NCBI GenBank assembly: GCA_963755715.1
Contig: CAVWLW010000002.1
Span: forward strand, 39,345 to 103,344
Length of the DNA stretch: 64,000 bases
Source: an uncultured delta proteobacterium
GTDB lineage: Bacteria > Desulfobacterota > Binatia > UBA9968
Direction of reading: 5' to 3'
The notes beneath the pieces are model-generated. The model ran no database searches, was not told the DNA's origin, and saw only the letters and a list, made by a program, of their open reading frames with translations. This document shows positions 53,180 through 64,000 of this stretch, piece by piece; the stretch's first letter is position 1, and each line of letters opens with the position of its first letter. The position numbers and the translations under genes were made by a program.

Positions 53180-54340
53180 ATGGAACTGTTGAGACTACTG
53201 TTGCGCAATACCTTGCGCCACAAACTTAGAAGCCTGCTCACGGTCGTCGGCGTCGGCGTGGCGGTGATGGCTTTCGCTCTGCTGCAAACAGTCGTCACGG
53301 CTTGGTATGCGGGGGTCGAGGCCTCGGCGGCGAACCGCTTGATCACGCGCCACGCGGTCTCGTTTGTTTTTCCGCTGCCGCTCGCTTATCGCGATCGCAT
53401 TGCCCAAGTGCCGGGCGTGAATAAAGTCACTTATGCCATCTGGTTTTCCGGCGTGTATGTCGACAAGAACCAGTTTTTCGCGCGCTTGGCGGTCGATTCC
53501 GATACGTTTTTCGACGTCTATCCGGAATTTGTCATTCCGCCCGAGCAGTTCGAAGCGTTCAAGCGCGAGCGCAACGCCTGCGTCATCGGCATCGACATCG
53601 CCAACCGGTACAATCTCAAGATCGGCGACATCATGCCCGTGGAAGGCGACGTTTATCCGGGCCAATGGGAGTTCGTCGTGCGCGGCATTTATCAGCCGCG
53701 CGACCAGACGACCGATCCTTCGTCGATGATGTTTCACTACAACTATGTCGATGAAAGGGTGCGCCAGGAGGCGCCGCACCGGGCTGGGCAGATCGGCTGG
53801 TATATTGTCCGCATCGACGATCCGGACAGCTCGGCCAGGATCTCGCAAGATATCGATAATCTATTCGCCAACTCGCGGGCGGAGACCAAGACCGAAACCG
53901 AGCGCGCTTTTCAGCAGGGATTTCTGTCCTCCGCCAGCGCGGTCATTACGGCGATGAACATCATGTCGTTCGTGATTATCGGCATCATCTTGCTGGTCGT
54001 CGGCAATACCATGGTCATGTCGGCGCGCGAGCGCAGCCACGAATTCGCCGTGCTCAAGGCGCTCGGCTTTTCCGGCCGGCAGTTGTTCTTATTGCTCACC
54101 GGTGAATCGATGATCCTGTCGATCGCCGGCAGCGCGCTCGGGCTGTTGGTGACGATTCCGGCCGTCGAAGGTTTTCAAAGCGCCTTGCCGAAAGGCTGGT
54201 TTCCGGTATTTTACATCAAGCCGGAAACGATCGTCATCGGCGCCATCGCGGGGCTCGCCGTCGGTTTTATCGCGTCCTTGATTCCGCTGCGGCGGGTCTT
54301 GACGACGCGCATCGTCGAAGGGCTCCGCTATGTGGGATGA
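53180..54340 (+). CDS. MacB/FtsX-type ABC permease
   Basis: RN..R.K.RS.LT, periplasmic domain, ER..EFAVLKALGF. Confidence 0.9.
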   Translation: MELLRLLLRNTLRHKLRSLLTVVGVGVAVMAFALLQTVVTAWYAGVEASAANRLITRHAVSFVFPLPLAYRDRIAQVPGVNKVTYAIWFSGVYVDKNQFFARLAVDSDTFFDVYPEFVIPPEQFEAFKRERNACVIGIDIANRYNLKIGDIMPVEGDVYPGQWEFVVRGIYQPRDQTTDPSSMMFHYNYVDERVRQEAPHRAGQIGWYIVRIDDPDSSARISQDIDNLFANSRAETKTETERAFQQGFLSSASAVITAMNIMSFVIIGIILLVVGNTMVMSARERSHEFAVLKALGFSGRQLFLLLTGESMILSIAGSALGLLVTIPAVEGFQSALPKGWFPVFYIKPETIVIGAIAGLAVGFIASLIPLRRVLTTRIVEGLRYVG

Positions 54341-54350
54341 GGAAAGGGAT

Positions 54351-54495
54351 TTCACCGCAGAGGCGCTGAGCCGATTCTACGGGACAATTCGAACTAACCA
54401 CGAAGGTCACGAAGCGCACGAAGTTCGGAAATATTAATATCCTAACCCTTCGTGGTCTTCGTGTGCTTCGTGGTGAGATTGGCTCTTGCGGTGAA
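54351..54495. repeat. Nested REP-like inverted repeat pairs
   Basis: Outer TTCACCGCAGAG...CTCTTGCGGTGAA; inner ACCACGAAGGTCACGAAGCGCACGAAG...CTTCGTGGTCTTCGTGTGCTTCGTGGT. Confidence 0.75.
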
Positions 54496-54516
54496 TCATA
54501 GTCCAAGTTTCGGTTC

Positions 54517-55690
54517 GTGATGCAAATCCCGCTGAAATATATCGTGCGCAGCTCGATCTCGCGCCGTTTGACGACGGTGATCACCATGCTGGGTGTCGCT
54601 CTGGTCGTGTTCGTCTTTTCCGCCGTGCTGATGATGGCCAACGGCGTGCAAAAGACGCTGCGCTCGACCGGCTCCGACGACAACATGATCGTGGTGCGCA
54701 AAGCGGCGATGAGCGAGATCATGAGCATCCTCGACCGCGAGGCCGCGGGGATCATCGTGAACCTGCCGCAGGTGGCGCGTGACGCCGATGGCCGGCCGCT
54801 GAGCTCCAAGGAAGTCGTCGTGATCATCAATCTCAACAAGCTCGGCACCGCCGGGATCAGCAACGTCACCGTGCGCGGCGTCGAAGAAGCGGCGTTTCAG
54901 TTGCGGCCGCAGGTGCGGATCGTTCAGGGCCGCATGTTTCGTTGGGGCGCGCGCGAAGTGATCGCCGGCGCCGGGATCACGAATCGATTCGTCGGCGCGC
55001 AGATCGGCGAGCAGGTGAAGTTCGGCGGCGACCTTTGGACGGTGGTGGGGATCTTCGATGCGGAGGGCAGCGGCTTCGACTCCGAGCTCTGGGGCGATTT
55101 GAATCAGATCGCCGATGCTTTCAAACGGCACGTCTCTATCGACGGTCACACTGCGGCTAAAAAACCCGGATGAGTTCGCAGAAGTCATCTCCGCCTTCGA
55201 GGCCGACAACCGGCTGCAATATTTCGCGCCCAAGCGCGAGAAAAAATTCTTCGAGGAACAGTCCGAAATGATGGCGACGTTCATCCGCATCCTGGGGATC
55301 TTCATCACGGTTATTTTCAGCACGGGCGCGATGATCGGCGCGATGATCACCATGTACGGCGCCGTGGCCAATCGGACGGTCGAAATCGGCACCTTGCGCG
55401 CCCTCGGTTTTTACCGCCGGAGCATTCTGCTGGCGTTTTTACTCGAGTCTTTGTTCCTATCGCTCGGCGGCGGTTTGGTCGGCCTTGGGATCGCGTCGCT
55501 GCTGCAATTTTTCACGATCTCGACGCTCAACTTGGGCTCGTTTTCGGAGCTGGCGTTTTCTTTCGCTCTGTCGCCGTCGATCGTCGCGATCTCGCTGGGA
55601 TTCTCACTGTTGATGGGCTTTATCGGCGGATTCCTACCAGCCGTCGGCGCGGCGCGGCTGAATATCATTCAGGCGCTGCGCGCGGTGTGA
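54517..55690 (+). CDS. MacB/FtsX-type ABC permease; frameshift near 55130
   Basis: N-terminal TM, NVTVRG, R..EIGTLRALGF, PA..AARLNI.QALR. Confidence 0.85.
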
Positions 55691-55836
55691 GAAACGGGAT
55701 TCCGTTTACCAGAAGGACGCGATGAATCGCGCCCCTCCATGTACCTTCGGTCTATGGCGGCTTTTGAACGGACCCCGGACTTGATCCGGGGGATTGAACG
55801 GCTTGAACGATTGGAACGGGCTTCGGTATTAGAAGG

Positions 55837-55975
55837 GCCGAGTTGAAGAAGAAATACGACGCGCAGTTCAAGGTCGTCTTGGACGCCATCCGCCAGCTCA
55901 TGGCGCCACCGGACGAAGAAACGGAAGATCGGATTTCTGGTAGAAGAGAAGGTCGCTTCGCACGGACGAAAGTAA
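55837..55975 (+). pseudogene. C-terminal remnant of an ORF6N-domain DNA-binding protein
   Basis: Read manually: AELKKKYDAQFKVVLDAIRQLMAPP..RKIGFLVEEK...*; no N-terminus. Confidence 0.7.
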
Positions 55976-56083
55976 AACGCTTCATTTTGACGTTTTGAGA
56001 ATCGTCAAAACGTGCAAGTTCCCGCCCAGTGTTTCAATTCCCAAACGGTTTGAACGGAGCGGATAAGTTCTCTGAATTCGGTA

Positions 56084-56136
56084 TTGCATCGAGTGCGGCA
56101 CGTGTTATGATGCATCGTGCTGCAAGGTTGCAGCAC
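56084..56136 (+). promoter_or_regulatory. Putative promoter and operator of the vapBC-like operon
   Basis: TTGCAT-16-TATGAT followed by the perfect palindrome GTGCTGCAA-GG-TTGCAGCAC (56117-56136). Confidence 0.55.
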
Positions 56137-56147
56137 AAGAGGAGTTT

Positions 56148-56408
56148 ATGAAAGCGGTCACGTTGAGAAGTCTCCCGCCCAATGTCGCCGAAGCTATTCG
56201 CAAAGAGGCGCATCGGAAGGGCATGAGCCTTAACAAGGCCGTCATCAGTTTGCTTGAAAACCGAGTGGGGGCGCGGGAGAAGAAAAGCCGGCAAACCCGA
56301 CACCATGATCTCGATGATCTAGCCGGATCATGGTCCAAACAAGAAGCGGCCGAGTTTGACAAGTCCCTGGCGGATCAGCGGACCATCGATCCCGATCTCT
56401 GGAAATAA
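56148..56408 (+). CDS. FitA/VapB-like ribbon-helix-helix antitoxin
   Basis: MKAVTLRSLP...A...G.SLNK...L; GAGGAG RBS; overlaps the PIN toxin start. Confidence 0.8.
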   Translation: MKAVTLRSLPPNVAEAIRKEAHRKGMSLNKAVISLLENRVGAREKKSRQTRHHDLDDLAGSWSKQEAAEFDKSLADQRTIDPDLWK

Positions 56409-56803
56409 TGCGGCTGTTGGTCGACACCTCGGCTTATTCCGCGTTCATGCGCGGACATGGCGAAATCAAAGCGGCCCTACAGGAAGCTGATGAGATTTTC
56501 GTAAACTCGATTGTCCTTGGCGAGCTGAGGGCCGGATTCATAAAAGGCCGGCGGCGGCGCAAGAACGACGATGAGCTGAATACATTTCTCGCTTCACCCC
56601 GAGTGAAGCTTCTCGATGTAACCGAAGAAACCGCCGAAAGATACGCGGTCATTCTAAACTCCCTCTGGCAAGCAGGAACGCCGATTCCCACAAACGATAT
56701 CTGGATTGCGGCCAGTTCCATGGAGCATGGGCTCGAGCTGTTGACCACTGATGAACACTACCAAAAAGTGCCTCAAGTCATAGTCAGTTATTTCCGAGTC
56801 TAG
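56408..56803 (+). CDS. vapC: PIN-domain toxin
   Basis: LLVDTSAY, VLGEL, PIPTNDIWIAA, LLTTD.HY. Confidence 0.9.
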   Translation: MRLLVDTSAYSAFMRGHGEIKAALQEADEIFVNSIVLGELRAGFIKGRRRRKNDDELNTFLASPRVKLLDVTEETAERYAVILNSLWQAGTPIPTNDIWIAASSMEHGLELLTTDEHYQKVPQVIVSYFRV

Positions 56804-56834
56804 GCCACCATCCACGATTTTATCCCGCAGCCCT

Positions 56835-56917
56835 TAGCTCAGGGCGCCTTCGAAGCCGAAGAAACTGAAAATCGGCTTTCCGGTGGAAGAGAAGGCGTTG
56901 CGTACAGACGAAGGTAA
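56835..56917 (+). pseudogene. Second ORF6N-type C-terminal remnant
   Basis: LRAPSKPKKLKIGFPVEEK; nucleotide similarity to 55896-55975. Confidence 0.55.
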
Positions 56918-57181
56918 ACGCTTCACTTCGACTTTTCGAGAATTCCCGAAACGTGGAAGTTCCCACTCTAGGTTTTTGATCTCAAACGGATTGAACGAAA
57001 ACGCAGTGGGAACACGAACACGTTCCACGTCTTTTCCTATCCTTTATCCTTTATCCATTTGCCTTTAGTATTGCGCCGCCCCAGCGAAATCATTTAAGTT
57101 CGAAGCACTCAGCTGGGGGAATCCCAAAGGGTTATCGCCATCCGGGTCACGATTGAAAAAGGGCCGTAAGCGGGAAACAAA

Positions 57182-58189
57182 ATGAGCGCCATGAGACGGT
57201 ACTCTCCTCTGACTGTGATCTTCCTGCTGGTTGGCTGGAATACATTCGCTGAAGCACAGCTCACCAAATTGACGGTCGGTTACAGTGCGATCAGCGAAGT
57301 CGACATGCCGGCGTGGGTGGCCAAAGAGACCAAGCTCTTCGAAAAAAATGGCCTGGATGTTCAATTGATCTATTTTACCGGAGGGACGACAGCCGTTCTG
57401 GCCCTCGTCTCCGGCGAAGTGCCGATCAGTCAGGTGGCAGGTCCTGCTGTCGTGAACGCCGCGCTGGCGGGTTCCGATGTCGTGATGATTGCCGGAGGCG
57501 CGACCTCCGCGGACTATTGGCTCATGAGCGGCCGAGAGATCAAAAAAGCCGACCAGCTCAAGGGCGGCTCCGTCGCGATTAGTAATTTTGGCGCAGGTTC
57601 GGATTTCATTGCGCGCTACGCGCTCGAGAAAATCGGTTTGATTCCCGGAAAGGATGTCTCGATCGTACAAGCGGGAGGCATCTCGGATCGGCTGTCGGCC
57701 GTTCTCGTGGGAAGAGTCCAGGCCACTGTGCTCAATCCTCCGGCCAGCTTCATCGGACAAAAGAAAGGGTTGAACGTTCTCGCCGATGTCGCCAAGCTGG
57801 GTCTCGCTTTTCAGAATACCGGCGTCGCCACCAGCCGAAGATTTAGGCGCGAGCAGCCCGATATGGTCAGGAGATATATTAGAGCGCAGGTGGAAGCCGT
57901 GCACCGGATCTACACGGACAAAGAAACCGCCCTCCAGGTCCTGACGAAATACTTCCGCGGCAATGTAGAACGGGACATCCTGGAAAAGACCTGGGAACTC
58001 CTGACGGAAGGCACTTTGCTTCCCAAGAAACAATATCCGACGCTTGAGGGTATCAAATTCATTTTAGCTCCCTTGGCAGAAAAGGACGCCAAGGCGAGGG
58101 CCGCCAAGCCTGAAGACTTTGCCGATTCGAGCTTGATAAAAGAGCTCGACGAAAGTGGCTATATCGATAACCTCTACAAGAAAAGGTGA
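57182..58189 (+). CDS. NitT/TauT ABC substrate-binding protein
   Basis: PAWVAKETKLFEKNGL, QLKGGSVA, ELDESGYI. Confidence 0.85.
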   Translation: MSAMRRYSPLTVIFLLVGWNTFAEAQLTKLTVGYSAISEVDMPAWVAKETKLFEKNGLDVQLIYFTGGTTAVLALVSGEVPISQVAGPAVVNAALAGSDVVMIAGGATSADYWLMSGREIKKADQLKGGSVAISNFGAGSDFIARYALEKIGLIPGKDVSIVQAGGISDRLSAVLVGRVQATVLNPPASFIGQKKGLNVLADVAKLGLAFQNTGVATSRRFRREQPDMVRRYIRAQVEAVHRIYTDKETALQVLTKYFRGNVERDILEKTWELLTEGTLLPKKQYPTLEGIKFILAPLAEKDAKARAAKPEDFADSSLIKELDESGYIDNLYKKR

Positions 58190-58273
58190 TCGATCCAACA
58201 CGAACACGAATCACGAGCACGACGCAGGTTGAAAAGATAAAGGCTGAAGGATAAAGGATGAAATCCATCCACC

Positions 58274-58378
58274 ATGTCCACCATCGATCTCAAAATCAGG
58301 ACGAAAGACTATGCTCTTTCGGTGATCCGGCTTTTTGATGTCCCGCTCCGCTCGCGTAAGTGCTTCGCCATAATTTAA
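58274..58378 (+). pseudogene. N-terminal remnant of a four-helix-bundle (TIGR02436-like) protein
   Basis: MSTIDLKIRTKDYALSVIRLF then stop; preceded by AAGGAT(A) heptamer repeats at 58233-58260. Confidence 0.6.
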
Positions 58379-58397
58379 CGCCAGTCGTTCCTTTTTA

Positions 58398-58836
58398 GTG
58401 CCGGACGGCAGAGGCAACGTCGACCACTTGGTGATGGGCCCCAATGGCCTGTTTGCGATCGAGACCAAAAACTATTCGACCTTCGTCAAATGCTCCGGCG
58501 ACGACTGGTTCGTCAACGGCAAGAAGATTCGTAGCCTGAGCAAACAGGCTAAGCGCAATGCCATCGCCGTGAGAGAGACTGGCGGCCGTTTTTGCGGACC
58601 AAGGAAACCGCCTCCCATTCGTCACTGCCTTGCTTGTTTTCGTCAATGGGAACGGCCGGTTCTCGATTAAAAACCCCACGGTTCCTGTCCTGCGCTCATC
58701 AGAGCTCGCTGAATTTATCGCTCGGTACAACAGCGCGAGACCGCCATCGATTACGTCGCCGAAGTTAAGGCGTGCGATCGTCCACCATCTCCACCTTCTT
58801 CAGCAAAAGCCCGACAAATGGGTCGCGAACGGTTAG
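58398..58836 (+). pseudogene. NERD nuclease-related domain, 5'-truncated and frameshifted
   Basis: NVDHLVMGPNGLFAIETKNY...KQAKRNA; continues in ORF 58630-58836. Confidence 0.7.
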
Positions 58837-58947
58837 TCTTTTTCAAACCATGCCGTCAATACGTCCCGCCTCATTTCGACGTTTCGGGAATCTCGATACG
58901 TCGAAGCCAGCTTGACAGCGATAATGGTTTCGCCGTACACCGCGGCG

Positions 58948-59247
58948 ATGGATGAAACCCAATATCGTGAATCGCGGATCTGTCGGCTCCTCGGTAATCC
59001 GGTGATCTACCAGCTCGTCGTTCTTCTCGATGACGGCGGGCCGATGACTCCTAGTCATCTTGCCAAGCTTGCCGGTCGCTCGGTGCAGACGGTCAGCGGT
59101 CATCTCGCCAAGCTACGCACGGCTGACATCGTCCGGTATGATACGGCCGGGAAAGAAGTTCGCTATTGGCTCAAGCACCGCGGCGAAACGCGCGCGCTAT
59201 TGAAAGCTCTTGAGAAAATCATCCATGCGTCGAGCCAGCTTGCTTAG
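58948..59247 (+). CDS. ArsR-like winged HTH protein
   Basis: ICRLLGNPVIYQLVVLL...PSHLAKLAGRSVQTVSGHLAKLR...IV.Y...G.EVRYWL. Confidence 0.8.
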   Translation: MDETQYRESRICRLLGNPVIYQLVVLLDDGGPMTPSHLAKLAGRSVQTVSGHLAKLRTADIVRYDTAGKEVRYWLKHRGETRALLKALEKIIHASSQLA

Positions 59248-59399
59248 ATCCTCATTTCGACGTTTCGAGAATTCTCGAAACGTGGAAGTTCCCCATAGGT
59301 TGGACCGGAATCTCGAGGACGCCTTTTCTCCTTTCGCACTGCCACGAACACGGCACTTCTCCCCACGCCGGATGAACTCGAATCCAGTGCCATTGTCCG

Positions 59400-59583
59400 C
59401 GCCATTACTTCAGAAACCAGTCATATCTACGCTGACATCCGTCATGATCTCCGCGTGGCCGGCCAGCCCATTTCCGGAGAACGATCTTTGGATCCCGCTT
59501 TGGCAAGGCAGCACGGACTGCCGGTTCTCACCAACGACGCGCACTTCGATCAAGTGTCCGGACTTGAACGGATCGGTTGGTGA
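59400..59583 (+). pseudogene. PIN/VapC toxin C-terminal remnant
   Basis: Across two shifts: YADIRHDLRVAGQPI|ENDLWI|ALARQHGLPVLTNDAHFDQVSGLERIGW*. Confidence 0.7.
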
Positions 59584-59838
59584 CGGCCTAAACAAATCGC
59601 TTTGATTTCGACATTTGCGCAATTCCGCACATGAAAGTCCCCTCCGACGCTGTGATTGAACCTTGAACTTTTGAACCGCCGAAGGCTTTGAGCGGGCCGC
59701 AGTATTAAATAGCGACGATCATAAAACACGATCACGGTAGTTCTCCGTTCACGTCCACGGTTTTATCCTTATCCGGCTGCTTCCCCCTTCATCCCTTATC
59801 CTTTTGCCCTTATCCTTATCTAAGACTGAGGTGAACCG

Positions 59839-61126
59839 ATGAAAACAACCACGGCAACTTCGCTGGGAAACGTTTCGCTTGCCGTCTCCGTCGGGGGATT
59901 GATCGCCACGGGATTGGCATTGCGTCAGGGATGGATCGCGGCTCCCGGTTGGATGATTCTGCTGCAAACCTTCGAGGCGGCGACCGTCGGCGGACTGGCG
60001 GACTGGTTCGCGGTGAGCGCGTTGTTTCGCGAAGTGCCCGTGCCGCTGATACGGCGCCATACGAATATCATCATCAAAAATCGCCAGCGCATCGCCGCCG
60101 GCATCGCGGACATGGTGCAGAACCGCTGGCTTGCCCCTCACATCATCCGCGAGCACCTGGTGCATTTCTCGGCGTCCCACTATGTGCTGGATTTCTTCGC
60201 CAACGAGAAACATTTGGAAACTGTACTCGCGGTGGCCCGGGACCTCATCCGGCAATTGGCGCGCGGCATTACCGCCGACGAAGCCGCGGCGTTTCTCGAG
60301 CGCACGCTCAAAGACCGGCTGCAAAATATGCAGATCGCCGCGCCGCTCGGGCGCTGGTTGGGGCGGCGGCTGCGCAGCGGCGACCATCACGGTTTGTGGG
60401 ATACGCTGCTCGCGTTCGGGGAAACGGCGGTTCAGGGGCCTGAGGCTAAGGCGATCGTCCAACGGACGATCGCGCGGGCGATCGAAATTTACGAAGAAGG
60501 CGGGCCGCTGAAGCGGCTGACCGTCGGTCTGGCGCGGGGACTCAAGCTCGTCGATGAGGAAAAGATGGTCGCAACGATCCTCGCCAAGATCAGCCGAGGC
60601 GCTGCACGCCGCCCGCGCCGATCCCGGCCATCCGCTGCGAGCGCGCATGGATGCCATCGCGCTTGAATTCGCGGATAAACTGGCAGCCGGCGACGCCGAT
60701 GCGGCGGCCACGCTCGACCGGCTGCAAGCCGGGCTCATCGACGGCGCGGACCTAGAGGAGATGCTCCAGCGCGCGCTGCGCTGGCTCGGGGATTTCCTCG
60801 AGAAAGAATTTCACGAGCCGGGCTCCGCTTTCGACGCTCTCATGCGCCGCACGGTGCGCGATCGGCTCGAGCATTTTCGCGCCGACGGCGCCGCGCAGGC
60901 GAAAGTCGATCGCTGGGTGACGAACGCCGCCCTCGAACTGCTCGAGAAAAGGCATGAGATGATCGGTCAAATGGTCCGCGGTAGCCTCGATAGGCTGTCC
61001 GATCTCGACCTCGTCGGGCAGATAGAAGAGAAGGTCGGTCCGGACCTTCAGTACATTCGTCTCAACGGCGCCATCGTCGGCGGCCTCGCTGGAGCCGCGC
61101 TGGCGGCCATTAAATTGTTAACGTGA
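59839..61126 (+). CDS. DUF445 family membrane protein; frameshift near 60595
   Basis: EAATVGGLADWFAVSALFR, HTNII, IEEKVGPDLQYIRLNGAIVGG. Confidence 0.85.
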
Positions 61127-61433
61127 CGGGCTTCTAAAGCCACGAACAGGGTCCGCTTGGCTTTGTGCTCGTGGCCGCGCCATTAGCCAGCGCTCATTTC
61201 GACGTTTCGAGAATTCTCGAAACGTGGAAGTTCCCTCCGAATCTAACGTTGAACCCTTCGACGGTGAGGGCAGACTCAACGCCCAGGAACATGAGCACGG
61301 CACCATCCCGCGCGCTCACGCATCATGAACAAGCGCGCTCCACTCCTTATCCTTTTCCTGGATTGACGTTCCTTGTCAAAGACAAGGCGGCGGCATATAG
61401 AGAACGATAGTCTTTCAGTTTAACGGGACATCG

Positions 61434-61694
61434 ATGCCGACGATCAGTTTCTTTTACGGTATTGTCATCCAAATGTTCTGGCGTGACCATGGCCCGCCTC
61501 ATTTCCATGCTTTATATGGCGATGATGAAGTACTTATTGACCTCAGAAACCTACGCGTGATGCGTGGTTCTTTACCGCGGCGGGCGATGGCGTTAGTATT
61601 GGAATGGGCCGACGAGAACCGCGTTGAGCTCATGGAGGATTGGAATTTATGCAGCCAACTGCAACCCCCCAAACCCATAAAACCCCTGATGTAG
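61434..61694 (+). CDS. DUF4160 family protein (putative toxin)
   Basis: MPTISFFYGIVI.M...DH.PPHFHA.Y, V.EWA, I.PL. Confidence 0.9.
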   Translation: MPTISFFYGIVIQMFWRDHGPPHFHALYGDDEVLIDLRNLRVMRGSLPRRAMALVLEWADENRVELMEDWNLCSQLQPPKPIKPLM

Positions 61695-61984
61695 AGACGA
61701 CAATCCGGCACACCGTTGCTTGGCGAGTAACGGCCGTCGCCGTGATTGCCGACGCTCGCTTGAGCGTTACGTTTGTGGATGGAACGACGGGTGATGTTGA
61801 CCTCGGTGCGTTTCTAAGCGACGCAAAAATCAACGGCACCGTTTTCGAAGGGCTGCGCGATCCAGCGACTTTTAGCCAAGCCCAGGTTGTTCTCGGCGCG
61901 GTCCAGTGGCCCAATGGCGCCGATCTCGCCCCCGACACGATGTATGATGCTATCCGCGAGCGCGGTGTTTGGGTTGTGGAGTGA
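61649..61984 (+). CDS. DUF2442 family protein (putative antitoxin)
   Basis: L.VTF.DG..G.VD, F..L.D...F, V.WPNGADLAPD..Y; GGAGG upstream; start uncertain. Confidence 0.85.
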   Translation: MQPTATPQTHKTPDVETTIRHTVAWRVTAVAVIADARLSVTFVDGTTGDVDLGAFLSDAKINGTVFEGLRDPATFSQAQVVLGAVQWPNGADLAPDTMYDAIRERGVWVVE

Positions 61985-62192
61985 GCGGTCCGTCGAGTCT
62001 ACTATCCATCACTTCTGGCTAGAGATTTTAACTCTGAACCATTAAACCGTCCGGTTGCTTACTATTGCTGTTGGCTCGTGCCTCACACCTGTTCGTAAAC
62101 GTTTTGAACGGACCCCGGACTCTCGATCCCGGGGATCGAACGACTGGAACTTGGAACGGGCTTTAATATTATTTAGAAGCAGGAGAAATTCT

Positions 62193-62405
62193 ATGGCCGA
62201 AAAAGTAAAAGTTTGGTTCGATCCCGAAGGGGACTTTTTAGAAGTGCGGTTCAGCGATGCGCCCGGGTTCATGCGCGAAACCGCCCATGACGCACTGATG
62301 GAGCGAGTCGATGAGCATGGACAGTTGGTCGGGTTCAGCATTCTCGGCGTCAGCCGCTTTCGCAAGGAGCGGCCTTTTGAAGCCGAGCTAACGGCTGGTA
62401 AGTAA
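62193..62405 (+). CDS. DUF2283 family protein (orphan)
   Basis: AGGAG RBS; KVWFDPEGDFLEV.F...RVDEHGQLVGFSIL. Confidence 0.8.
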   Translation: MAEKVKVWFDPEGDFLEVRFSDAPGFMRETAHDALMERVDEHGQLVGFSILGVSRFRKERPFEAELTAGK

Positions 62406-62575
62406 ACTACACCCAGCCAACGGCCGGTAGCGGTGAAACTGGAGCTGCGTTGCACGATCACGAATCACGAAGTGCCACGATCACGTCTTTTCCGTTTTCA
62501 TCCCTTATCCCTTTGCCTTGATCCTCCCGCGGTCCTTCAGGCAAGCCGAACCATCCTAGCCGTTGGGACCCATTC

Positions 62576-62878
62576 CTACGCCGCCTTCGACGACTCTTCC
62601 AACTCGACTCTCAATCGCGCGCCGAGCGCCGCCGCCACCTTTTCGAGCGTTGTTAAGGAGTAGTTTCGGTAGTTGGGGTTTTCCAGCCGTGAAATTCCAG
62701 CTTGCGTTGTTCCAACCTTGTCGGCCAGCTGCGCCTGGGTTAACCCGCATTTTTCCCTCAGTTCAGTGATCCGATGCGCCAAACGCAAGCGGCCGAGTTC
62801 GTCATCGTAGGCTCTACGGAACTTCGCACTCTGAGCGCCGATTCGAAATCGATAAGGTGCAGTCCGTTTTTTTTTCAT
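62576..62878 (-). CDS. XRE-family HTH antitoxin (HigA-like)
   Basis: LREKCGLTQAQLADKVGTTQAGISRLE...TLEKVAAALG. Confidence 0.9.
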   Translation of the reverse strand: MKKKRTAPYRFRIGAQSAKFRRAYDDELGRLRLAHRITELREKCGLTQAQLADKVGTTQAGISRLENPNYRNYSLTTLEKVAAALGARLRVELEESSKAA

Positions 62879-62879
62879 G

Positions 62880-63199
62880 TCAAACTTCCTCCATCCGTTT
62901 TTGGGCTATCTCCATTTCCCGGCGCGGTGTCTTCTGGCTTTTCTTGATGAAGCCATGAAGCAATACAATCACGCCGCCGGGCTTAAAACAGTAAAAAATC
63001 CGGCTGGCTTTCACTCGCAGTTCAAAGAGCCCGCCTCCCAGGCTTTTCGACAAGGGTTCGCAGGCACGATTGCCAATTTCCGCTAAGAAATCGATGCGGG
63101 CTCGAACACAGCACGATCGTGGACGGGGAGTGCCTCGATGAATTCTTCCACCGGATTGTTTTCCTTGCCATCGAGGTAGCATTCAATTCTCCAGGGCAC
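62880..63199 (-). CDS. RelE/HigB (Gp49/DUF891-like) toxin; frameshift near 63110
   Basis: GTG-PWRIECYLDGKENNPVEEFI | LFELRV...RIFY...IVLLHGFIKKSQKTP.RE...A..R. Confidence 0.85.
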
Positions 63200-63204
63200 G
63201 GCTA

Positions 63205-63233
63205 ACATTACAAAATTGTGATGCAGGTGTCAA
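63205..63233 (-). promoter_or_regulatory. Sigma70 promoter with overlapping operator; probably leaderless transcript
   Basis: TTGACA-17-TAATGT on the minus strand, 5 nt before the GTG; near-palindrome CATTACAA-AA-TTGTGATG at 63206-63223. Confidence 0.65.
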
Positions 63234-63784
63234 TGCAAAGGGTTGTTGAGCCCGCCGGTGACAAATCACGATCAGGACTACGACGACGGTAGTATCCACA
63301 AATCCGGTTCACGGCACTTCTCCCCACCACGTGCACGGTTTTTATCCTTATCCCTTATCCTTTCCCCCGGCCCCGAGATTCTTTTCAAAATTCTAGGCTG
63401 TAATCCGTTTCGAGCCTGCTTAGGTTAGATTCTCGCGAGAAGTACGTGGCGGCGGAACTTACCTGGCGAGACCAGGAGGCAAACATCATGTCGAAGTGGA
63501 TCGTCGCCCATCTTGGGCGTTAATTTACATTTCGACGTTTCGAGAATTCCCGAAACGTGGAAGTTCCCCGTTCGAGTTGTAATTGTCTTTAACGATTTGA
63601 ACGGGCGCCAGTATTGATTGCCACGATCACGAATCACGAACACGGCCCTTATCCTTTATAAACTCGCCCTTGCCCGAAACCCGCCGAATCTAATAAACTA
63701 CAAAAAACTTTTGGCCAAACCAGGAATGACGCTATAGCCAGATCTCCGCGCGGGATTACGCCGGGAATCACCGTTAAGCGTTGA

Positions 63785-64000
63785 CCTTTGGCTCGACGGC
63801 TCATGAAGCTGCGAAAGTTCAAACCAAGGGATGCGCTTCACGTGGCGTGCGCCCAACACGGTGGATGCGACTTCTTCATTACCTGCGACGATACATTGAT
63901 CCAACGCGCGTCGAGAGGTGGTCGTCAGTCGGTGCTTCAAGTGAAAGTCGTTAATCCGGTGGAATTCATACGAAACGAGGGCAGTCGTTATGGCAAAGGT
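63785..64000 (+). pseudogene. PIN-domain protein C-terminal part (5'-truncated, runs off window end)
   Basis: Read manually: KFKPRDALHVACAQHGGCDFFITCDD...VKVVNPVEFI; in-frame TGA at 63782 upstream. Confidence 0.7.

Follow-up and report, generated by a model that had tools for sequence, protein, structure and literature searches.

A conserved 41-bp hairpin repeat in cassette-like gene arrays of one Candidatus Binatia family

The window examined here is a 64,000-nucleotide stretch of DNA, the last 64 kb of contig C2 (CAVWLW010000002.1) in the 7.4-Mb genome G000 (assembly GCA_963755715.1) of a Candidatus Binatia bacterium; the window end is also the contig end. Binatia are an abundant, uncultured soil lineage. 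A first-pass annotation, made from the letters of the window, described near its end a row of accessory genes punctuated by a 41-bp palindromic repeat, and read it as a cassette-like array. This reading is borne out: the repeat is clustered, co-oriented and distinct from the attC sites of integrons, gene order varies between genomes, and homology breaks at the repeat. In one family of Candidatus Binatia the repeat appears to close off small gene units as their conserved last element. Such a unit would begin with a non-coding leader of its own, continue with one or two accessory genes and finish with the hairpin, and the units would be stacked head to tail in variable chromosomal hot-spots, with the hairpins all pointing in the same direction.

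We favour, with middling confidence, the reading that the repeat is a cassette-junction hairpin working like attC. It would most likely be the site where units are cut out, inserted and exchanged, and would most likely be recognised by a protein encoded elsewhere in the genome. The system would thus resemble attC in its behaviour and lie outside the attC family. To our knowledge, no system other than the integron has been well described as storing single-gene cassettes and reshuffling them; literature searches returned no description of such arrays in Binatota/Binatia or among integron-like and hairpin cassette systems.

The repeat in the window, the genome and the family

Matching the 41-mer to the window at up to 3 mismatches gave four matches (56924, 59253, 61195 and 63528), all on the forward strand, and none in 100 shuffles used as control. 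A repeat search of the window added a copy at 55983 with 84% identity. We then built a profile from 235 pooled distinct copies and ran it with nhmmer across the entire genome, which returned six significant copies in the window, at 55982, 56923, 58870, 59251, 61193 and 63527. The seven co-oriented copies of the first-pass annotation are therefore reduced to five good ones and a degenerate one (58870, E=1.6e-5): the seventh, at 59604, has no nhmmer match at E<=10. Neither profile nor pattern searches found a copy elsewhere on C2, so the first 55 kb of the window are free of copies, as had been claimed. The perfect 24-bp palindrome described for the core, ACGTTTCGAGAATTCTCGAAACGT, is present in the copies at 59253 and 61195, and the other copies carry 1-3 changes within it. 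The copies had also been placed 4-68 bp past stop codons. This holds after the stops at 59247 (5 nt) and 61126 (68 nt); the open frame at copy 55983 terminates within the repeat (55998), not before it.

The genome holds about 22 copies at E<1e-3, of which 15 lie within three clusters. By contig they number six on C2, four on C5, five on C50, two each on C43 and C7, and one each on C16 and C33. This is not the scatter of a repetitive extragenic palindromic (REP) sequence: copies are not strewn through the genome in both orientations next to core genes. Nor is the gene order around them fixed across genomes. The C5 copies are at the contig start, directly after a tRNA-Asn gene and all on the opposite strand. 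The window array is truncated, since the window ends with contig C2, and the C5 array likewise stops at a contig end when read in repeat orientation. Units and leader sequences common to both arrays account for these breaks in the assembly.

To survey the lineage we used a 34-nt pattern at up to 3 mismatches, with the reversed pattern as control; the tallies take in the unpublished genomes G005 and G035, and the relatives in this and all other comparisons are kin and thus non-independent. Of the 36 other genomes in the family (f1), 18 carry the repeat, and these belong to six of its seven genera; none of 24 genomes of the sister families f2 and f3 carries it. The reversed pattern matched nowhere. 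A public scan with one genome per species returned at least 118 stretches with the repeat, and among the matches listed nearly all are titled Candidatus Binatia or soil or groundwater ‘Deltaproteobacteria’. There were no pattern matches in viral contigs and no match to the repeat in plasmids.

The better-assembled genomes have one main array, small clusters and single copies. The main array comprises 13 copies over 22 kb in G019, about 19 over 22 kb in G061, 8-9 over 26 kb in G062 and five copies in G015. Within eight arrays (two each in G000 and G018, one each in G015, G019, G061 and G062) all 71 of 71 copies are co-oriented; two opposite-strand copies lie 22-30 kb beyond the G019 array. The median spacing between copies is 1225 nt (n=59).

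Across the 235 copies conservation covers TCATTTCGACGTTTCGAGAATTCTCGAAACGTGGAAGT and, more weakly, the nnCC after it; identity has fallen to background by positions −2 and +42. The 38-41 conserved nucleotides form a single stem without bulges: a 10-bp inner stem, a G·G mismatch and a short outer stem, and the feet differ (left CATTTC, right GGAAGT). Folded as single-stranded DNA, a consensus copy gives the 10-bp stem, the mismatch and three more pairs, with −12.2 kcal/mol and z=−3.95 against shuffles. The arms co-vary: at pair 14-25, 168 copies have C-G and 49 have T-A, and pairs 16-23 and 6-33 are likewise altered on both arms. Pair 7-32 is the G·G mismatch in 196 of the 235, and pair 3-36 is T·G in 177. 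This T·G hints that the top strand is the one that folds; the other pairs are mixed. It is the sequence of the repeat, and not its shape alone, that is conserved across six genera, including the fixed mismatch and asymmetric feet. The combination of conserved sequence, kept symmetry, fixed mismatch and asymmetric feet would be expected of a site that a protein recognises by its structure, and it exceeds what a plain RNA stem would need.

Two subtypes of the repeat occur, TTTCGA...TCGAAA and TTTTGA...TCAAAA. We also observed tandem junctions with one hairpin of each subtype, in the G061 array (loci L152/L153) and in L084 and L144, at a fixed spacing of either 63 nt (three times in G061) or 51 nt. 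Such a double hairpin could be a mini-unit without an open reading frame (ORF) or a composite site. No Rfam family matched positions 54000-64000 at E<=0.1. The half-site TTATCAAAAC may resemble hix sites, and GTTC the IS91 target.

A plainer explanation of these features is that the repeat is a structural hairpin at the 3′ ends of genes, such as a transcription stop, an insulator or an mRNA stabiliser, which hitch-hikes with horizontally acquired genes. The arrays would then be pile-ups in hot-spots, and shuffling would need no dedicated enzyme, the 41-bp repeats recombining with one another either by homology or because the hairpin stimulates it. We regard this as possible, if rather unlikely. 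It is consistent with the position of the repeat after co-oriented frames, since between −45 and +100 nt a same-strand stop accompanies 65 of 124 copies and a convergent one 28 of 124. It also agrees with the units having leaders of their own, which contain TTGAAC-type motifs, with the lack of a recombinase linked to the arrays, and with the location of the window array in a general variable hot-spot. Several observations argue the other way. An intrinsic terminator is not a suitable description: the stem is followed by GGAAGTTCCC and no T-run, a terminator scan omits the copies, and terminator-like sites in the region occur at chance level (12 against 11.3 expected). Conservation across six genera extends beyond shape to sequence, mismatch and feet, about 22 copies in 7.4 Mb are few, and almost none of them follow core genes. 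Finally, the genus has another hairpin repeat in the dispersed role.

This second hairpin is at window positions 54394-54477, after an FtsX gene. It is about 85 nt long, with CACGAAG-type repeats and 30-nt arms that are 83% complementary. Well over 100 copies are among the matches listed, in both orientations and in 30 of 31 genomes, including those without the 41-bp repeat. It is a better candidate than the 41-bp repeat for a REP or for a REP doublet forming a hairpin (REPIN).

Units shared between genomes

The units behave as gene cassettes do: the same ones stand in different arrays, orders and genomes, with their boundaries at the repeat. The unit with an ArsR-like winged helix-turn-helix (wHTH) gene aligns repeat-to-repeat in G000, G015, G018 and G019, and its outer flanks are unrelated. 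The DUF2283 unit has 87% DNA identity between G000 and G019; it adjoins the wHTH unit in G019 and is 3 kb from it in G000. The HigBA pair has a 93% identical duplicate in the C5 array, and over 215 nt the PIN gene cut by the contig end (63788) matches a differently placed unit of the G018 array with 100% identity. By DNA and protein comparison, DUF2283, HigBA, PIN, ORF6N and MqsA-like units recur in other orders or arrays.

We compared the eight arrays between different genomes, taking high-scoring segment pairs (HSPs) of at least 150 nt. In 47 of the 116 HSPs the right end lay no more than 10 nt from the 3′ end of a repeat, where random placement gives 1%, although these counts are non-independent because the genomes are kin and each pair is counted in both directions. 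Where two copies share only one flank, variants in either arm track the flank on their own side (14 pairs for the left, 25 for the right), and hybrid repeats with broken symmetry exist, for example at L027:7904. Arm variants and hybrid repeats fit an exchange inside the repeat, be it site-specific or homologous, since all repeats are alike. A circle-like junction seen on comparing L084 with L144 was rejected, as it proved to be a mosaic of related 3′ ends.

Beside the kinship of the genomes, a number of points weigh against the favoured reading. A single unit family, that of the wHTH, supplies about 32 of the 47 sharp ends; the remaining ones come from at least six others. No left end (0/116) lies within 10 nt of a repeat, and 22% lie within 50 nt. 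Homology ending at the repeat is also expected from homologous recombination, because all repeats are alike, and among the 235 copies there is no clean gain or loss of a single unit between two otherwise identical arrays. All genomes compared are metagenome bins. Parts of the window are held by 20 runs from 12 soil studies, 11 of which hold at least half of its words, and in contigs of four soil runs many different sequences abut both repeat edges; these contigs are short, so that paralogous copies and rearrangement are inseparable in them. A few copies (C33, C43) adjoin core-looking genes, and the units seem to bring their own leaders, unlike most integron cassettes. As for an enzyme, the main arrays of six genomes assembled into longer contigs (G000, G015, G018, G019, G061 and G062) have no tyrosine recombinase within about 30 kb, no serine recombinase was found in G000 or G018, and no Y2 (IS91-type) transposase was found in G019 or near the arrays. 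The recombination or capture site with a dedicated enzyme outside the window, as put forward in the first-pass annotation, thus remains a proposal.

Candidate partner proteins and known hairpin systems

A tblastn search of the G000 recombinases against about 148 repeat-bearing loci gave one weak match, and two large serine recombinases adjoin the array of G061 only. The commonest large genes near the repeat encode binding proteins and amidohydrolases, not DNA-acting enzymes. Among small proteins the commonest is the wHTH protein, with 17 distinct sequences, 11 of them then followed by a repeat, and the next is ORF6N, with 10 sequences; both are DNA-binding folds. In most of about a dozen loci the wHTH unit keeps its repeat-gene-repeat layout, over a range of 60-95% protein identity, and its upstream repeat abuts a TTGACA box. 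The nearest solved relatives of the protein are the dimeric ArsR/SmtB repressors CmtR and ArsR. Among f1 genomes, homologues are present in 13 of the 19 with the repeat and in 4 of the 18 without it; at 60% identity or more these numbers are 8 of 19 and 0 of 18.

These observations would also suit a palindrome that is the binding site of the array-borne wHTH protein, which would regulate, silence or mark the units, with shuffling as a secondary effect. We consider this improbable. Any cargo gene moving with the repeat would give an equal association, and the link of wHTH and repeat is for this reason a lead, not a result. Moreover, no homologue was found in 6 of the 19 repeat-bearing genomes, and the constant gap to the upstream repeat is also expected of a unit with a short leader. 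A more elaborate form of the favoured reading, in which Binatia have a second, IntI-independent cassette system, is conceivable but doubtful: the 38-41-nt hairpin would be the recombination site and would be bound by the wHTH protein, perhaps together with ORF6N, a distant enzyme would provide catalysis, and the system would coexist with integrons.

An attC site has a 5′ end RYYYAAC (R″) and a complementary 3′ end GTTRRRY (R′) and is about 55-140 nt long, with R and L boxes, an unpaired spacer and extrahelical bases. As the first-pass annotation stated, such ends are absent here: complementary R″/R′ pairs number zero in window positions 55700-64000 and zero in C5:1-5400, with two found in the positive control, beside the intI gene on contig C45 of the same genome. 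That IntI-like gene matches TIGR02249 with 250.6 and 151.6 bits in two frames, and the cassettes after it carry canonical GCCTAAC...GTTAGGC attC sites up to the contig end. Judged by its sequence, the 41-bp repeat is not attC.

The intI-like gene itself (C45:103717-105090; L001, L002) is broken, with a frame change near 104430. A GIY-YIG-looking ORF with short inverted repeats at its ends (C45:104744-105007) is inside its conserved C-terminal motif.

The arrays do resemble sedentary chromosomal integrons and clusters of attC sites lacking integrases (CALINs), such as those with Vibrio cholerae repeats (VCRs) in Vibrio. In both there are rows of 0.3-3 kb units, each ending in a foldable repeat; the repeats are co-oriented and near-identical within a lineage; units are shared between genomes in different order; the cargo consists of toxin–antitoxin (TA) pairs and small unknown genes; and one large array is accompanied by small clusters, as in G061 and G062. 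Unlike integrons, Binatia arrays have no intI, attI or common promoter at their start, the repeat has a length of 41 nt and a G·G mismatch in place of extrahelical bases, and the host's true integron with canonical attC sites is elsewhere in the genome.

Could the repeat be an aberrant attC, served in trans by the host IntI as in a CALIN? The TA cargo, the homogeneous lineage-specific repeats and their co-orientation give the arrays the appropriate layout, G000 has an IntI-like gene, and GTT is present at the inferred 3′ boundary of the G000 copies. We nevertheless find this very unlikely. R and L boxes are missing, as are canonical end pairs, and no integrase adjoins any array examined. The IntI genes of G015 and G019 are 700 kb off or on other contigs, with no repeat copies near them, and no IntI was found in G018, which has 15 copies, or in G027. 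Across the family, IntI was found in 12 of the 19 genomes with the repeat and in 6 of the 18 without it (p=0.10).

REP and REPIN sequences, which are associated with REP-associated tyrosine transposases (RAYTs), are likewise short extragenic imperfect palindromes with a conserved mismatch, downstream of genes. They differ from the Binatia repeat in number (hundreds, compared with about 22) and in that the latter is clustered and co-oriented, does not flank a Y1 gene and marks the boundaries of exchanged gene units; the dispersed hairpin at 54394-54477 fits the REP role better in this genus. A hairpin of REP/REPIN or IS200/IS605 type, moved by a Y1 (HUH) transposase, would agree with the imperfect palindrome and its fixed mismatch. 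Y1_Tnp genes or fragments are somewhat enriched, being present in about 10 of about 148 repeat-bearing loci, and lie within 10-25 kb of arrays in G018 and G019. However, none of the nine Y1_Tnp matches of G000 is closer than about 16 kb to a copy, G019 has five Y1 matches only, and the copies are few, clustered and co-oriented, neither dispersed nor paired. The one Y1 gene that we inspected (L145:4530-5580, about 300 aa) has terminal inverted repeats of its own, GGTGTCAGGCTTGAGTT, which differ from the 41-bp repeat. From its sequence, nearby Y1 genes are judged to be separate elements, and we give mobilisation by Y1 scant credence.

Xer modules, namely plasmid dif (pdif) modules and integrative mobile elements exploiting Xer (IMEX), also consist of small accessory or TA modules with partly palindromic sites, and there the recombinase is a distant housekeeping one. 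The Binatia repeats differ in being direct, not alternating. A dif-type site was rejected: a dif-like candidate at C8:27829 shares no arm sequence with the repeat.

This dif-like site (GATAA GATATA TTATGTAAACT) coincides exactly with the switch of the contig's GC skew from positive to negative, and C8:27829 is likely to be the replication terminus. A second dif-like string is found at C5:13653. We considered whether the arrays are at the terminus and dismissed it: the skew is positive on C2 and negative on C5, but the skew switch and the dif-like site are on C8.

The window array, its locus and implications

The features of the window array are collected in Table 1. Cargo genes were named by Pfam, and the names given by the first-pass annotation were confirmed for the FitA/VapB-like and PIN pair, NERD, the wHTH gene (HTH_20/HTH_5), DUF445, DUF4160, DUF2442, DUF2283, the Gp49 and HTH_3 pair and the PIN gene at 63788. 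Its remnants were less certain: the PIN match at 59455 is weak, and the ORF6N remnant itself has no Pfam match, but the end of an ORF6N gene in L118 shares 84% identity with the 3′ flank of the remnant. The leader motif at the array start recurs at 62093-62171 and in the arrays of G015, G018 and G019.

Table 1 Features of the array at the end of the window.
Feature	Position	Strand	Remarks
Leader motif	55762..55835	+	Array start; TTGAACGG repeats around a CCCCGGA...TCCGGGG hairpin
3′ remnant of ORF6N-type gene	55843..55998	+	Frame ends within copy 1
Repeat copy 1	55983..56023	+	TTTTGA...TCAAAA subtype; 6 mismatches to consensus; nhmmer E=2.6e-11
vapB-like (ribbon-helix-helix, RHH) and vapC (PIN) pair	56148..56803	+	Pfam
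Second ORF6N-type 3′ remnant	~56838-56920	+	Repeat/sequence comparison
Repeat copy 2	56924..56964	+	3 mismatches
NMT1-type solute-binding protein gene	57182..58189	+	Pfam
NERD gene	58398..58836	+	Pfam; out of frame in present assembly
Degenerate repeat copy	58872..58908	+	Directly upstream of wHTH gene, then TTGACA
ArsR-like wHTH gene	58912..59247	+	Most recurrent unit, arranged repeat-gene-repeat
Repeat copy	59253..59293	+	Consensus, 0 mismatches
PIN C-terminal remnant	59455..59583	+	Weak; Pfam E=0.021
Claimed seventh copy	59604..59644	+	At most a decayed remnant
DUF445 gene	59839..61126	+	Pfam; in two frames
Repeat copy	61195..61235	+	Consensus, 0 mismatches
DUF4160 and DUF2442 pair	61434..61984	+	Pfam
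DUF2283 gene	62193..62405	+	Pfam
HigBA-like pair (Gp49 toxin, HTH_3 antitoxin)	62576..63182	− (opposite strand)	Pfam
Repeat copy	63528..63568	+	1 mismatch
PIN gene	63788..64000	+	Pfam; cut by contig end

Two of the cargo genes look like pseudogenes. An intact, 275-aa copy of NERD is present in G018, and contigs of three soil runs have two extra bases at 58577/58579, where the gene changes frame. In DUF445 one base at 60591/60593, again at the change of frame, is missing from contigs of all four soil runs. The pseudogene look of both may be an assembly artefact or private to this bin and, since the soil-run populations lack these frameshifts, some of the ‘remnants’ may be assembly errors or private mutations.

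The spacers between units contain short low-complexity motifs with a 7-8-nt period, CACGAAN, TTATCCN and TTGAACN, at 57022-57071, 58199-58262, 59714-59816, 62453-62525, 63304-63375 and 63622-63671. These motifs also occur elsewhere in the genome, with 16-21 matches each, and a TGCCTNN motif is found upstream of many repeats in relatives. Sigma-70-type promoters were not detected in the region (0, with 4.1 expected).

The ABC transporter operon upstream of the window array is conserved across the genus, with matches in 29 of 30 other genomes. After it, G015, G019 and G027 have 5.5-14.6 kb of unrelated DNA, beyond which synteny resumes with genes that are found on contig C12 in G000. The presence of unrelated DNA between conserved flanks indicates that the array occupies a general variable hot-spot. 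G018 has three opposite-strand repeats at this locus. The arrays of other genomes occupy other neighbourhoods, and they have no conserved flanking gene in common except paralogous binding proteins. The genes surrounding the G019 and G061 arrays are defence and mobile genes that differ in kind and include RadC, a methylase, IS3, STAND, Mu-like and Mutator genes.

The repeats break metagenome assemblies, as is evident from the two G000 arrays that end at contig ends, and the accessory gene content of such bins is consequently under-reported. If the repeat is indeed a cassette junction, integron-finding software would be overlooking such arrays, a new pair of hairpin site and protein would await identification, and cassette-style gene capture would have arisen more than once.

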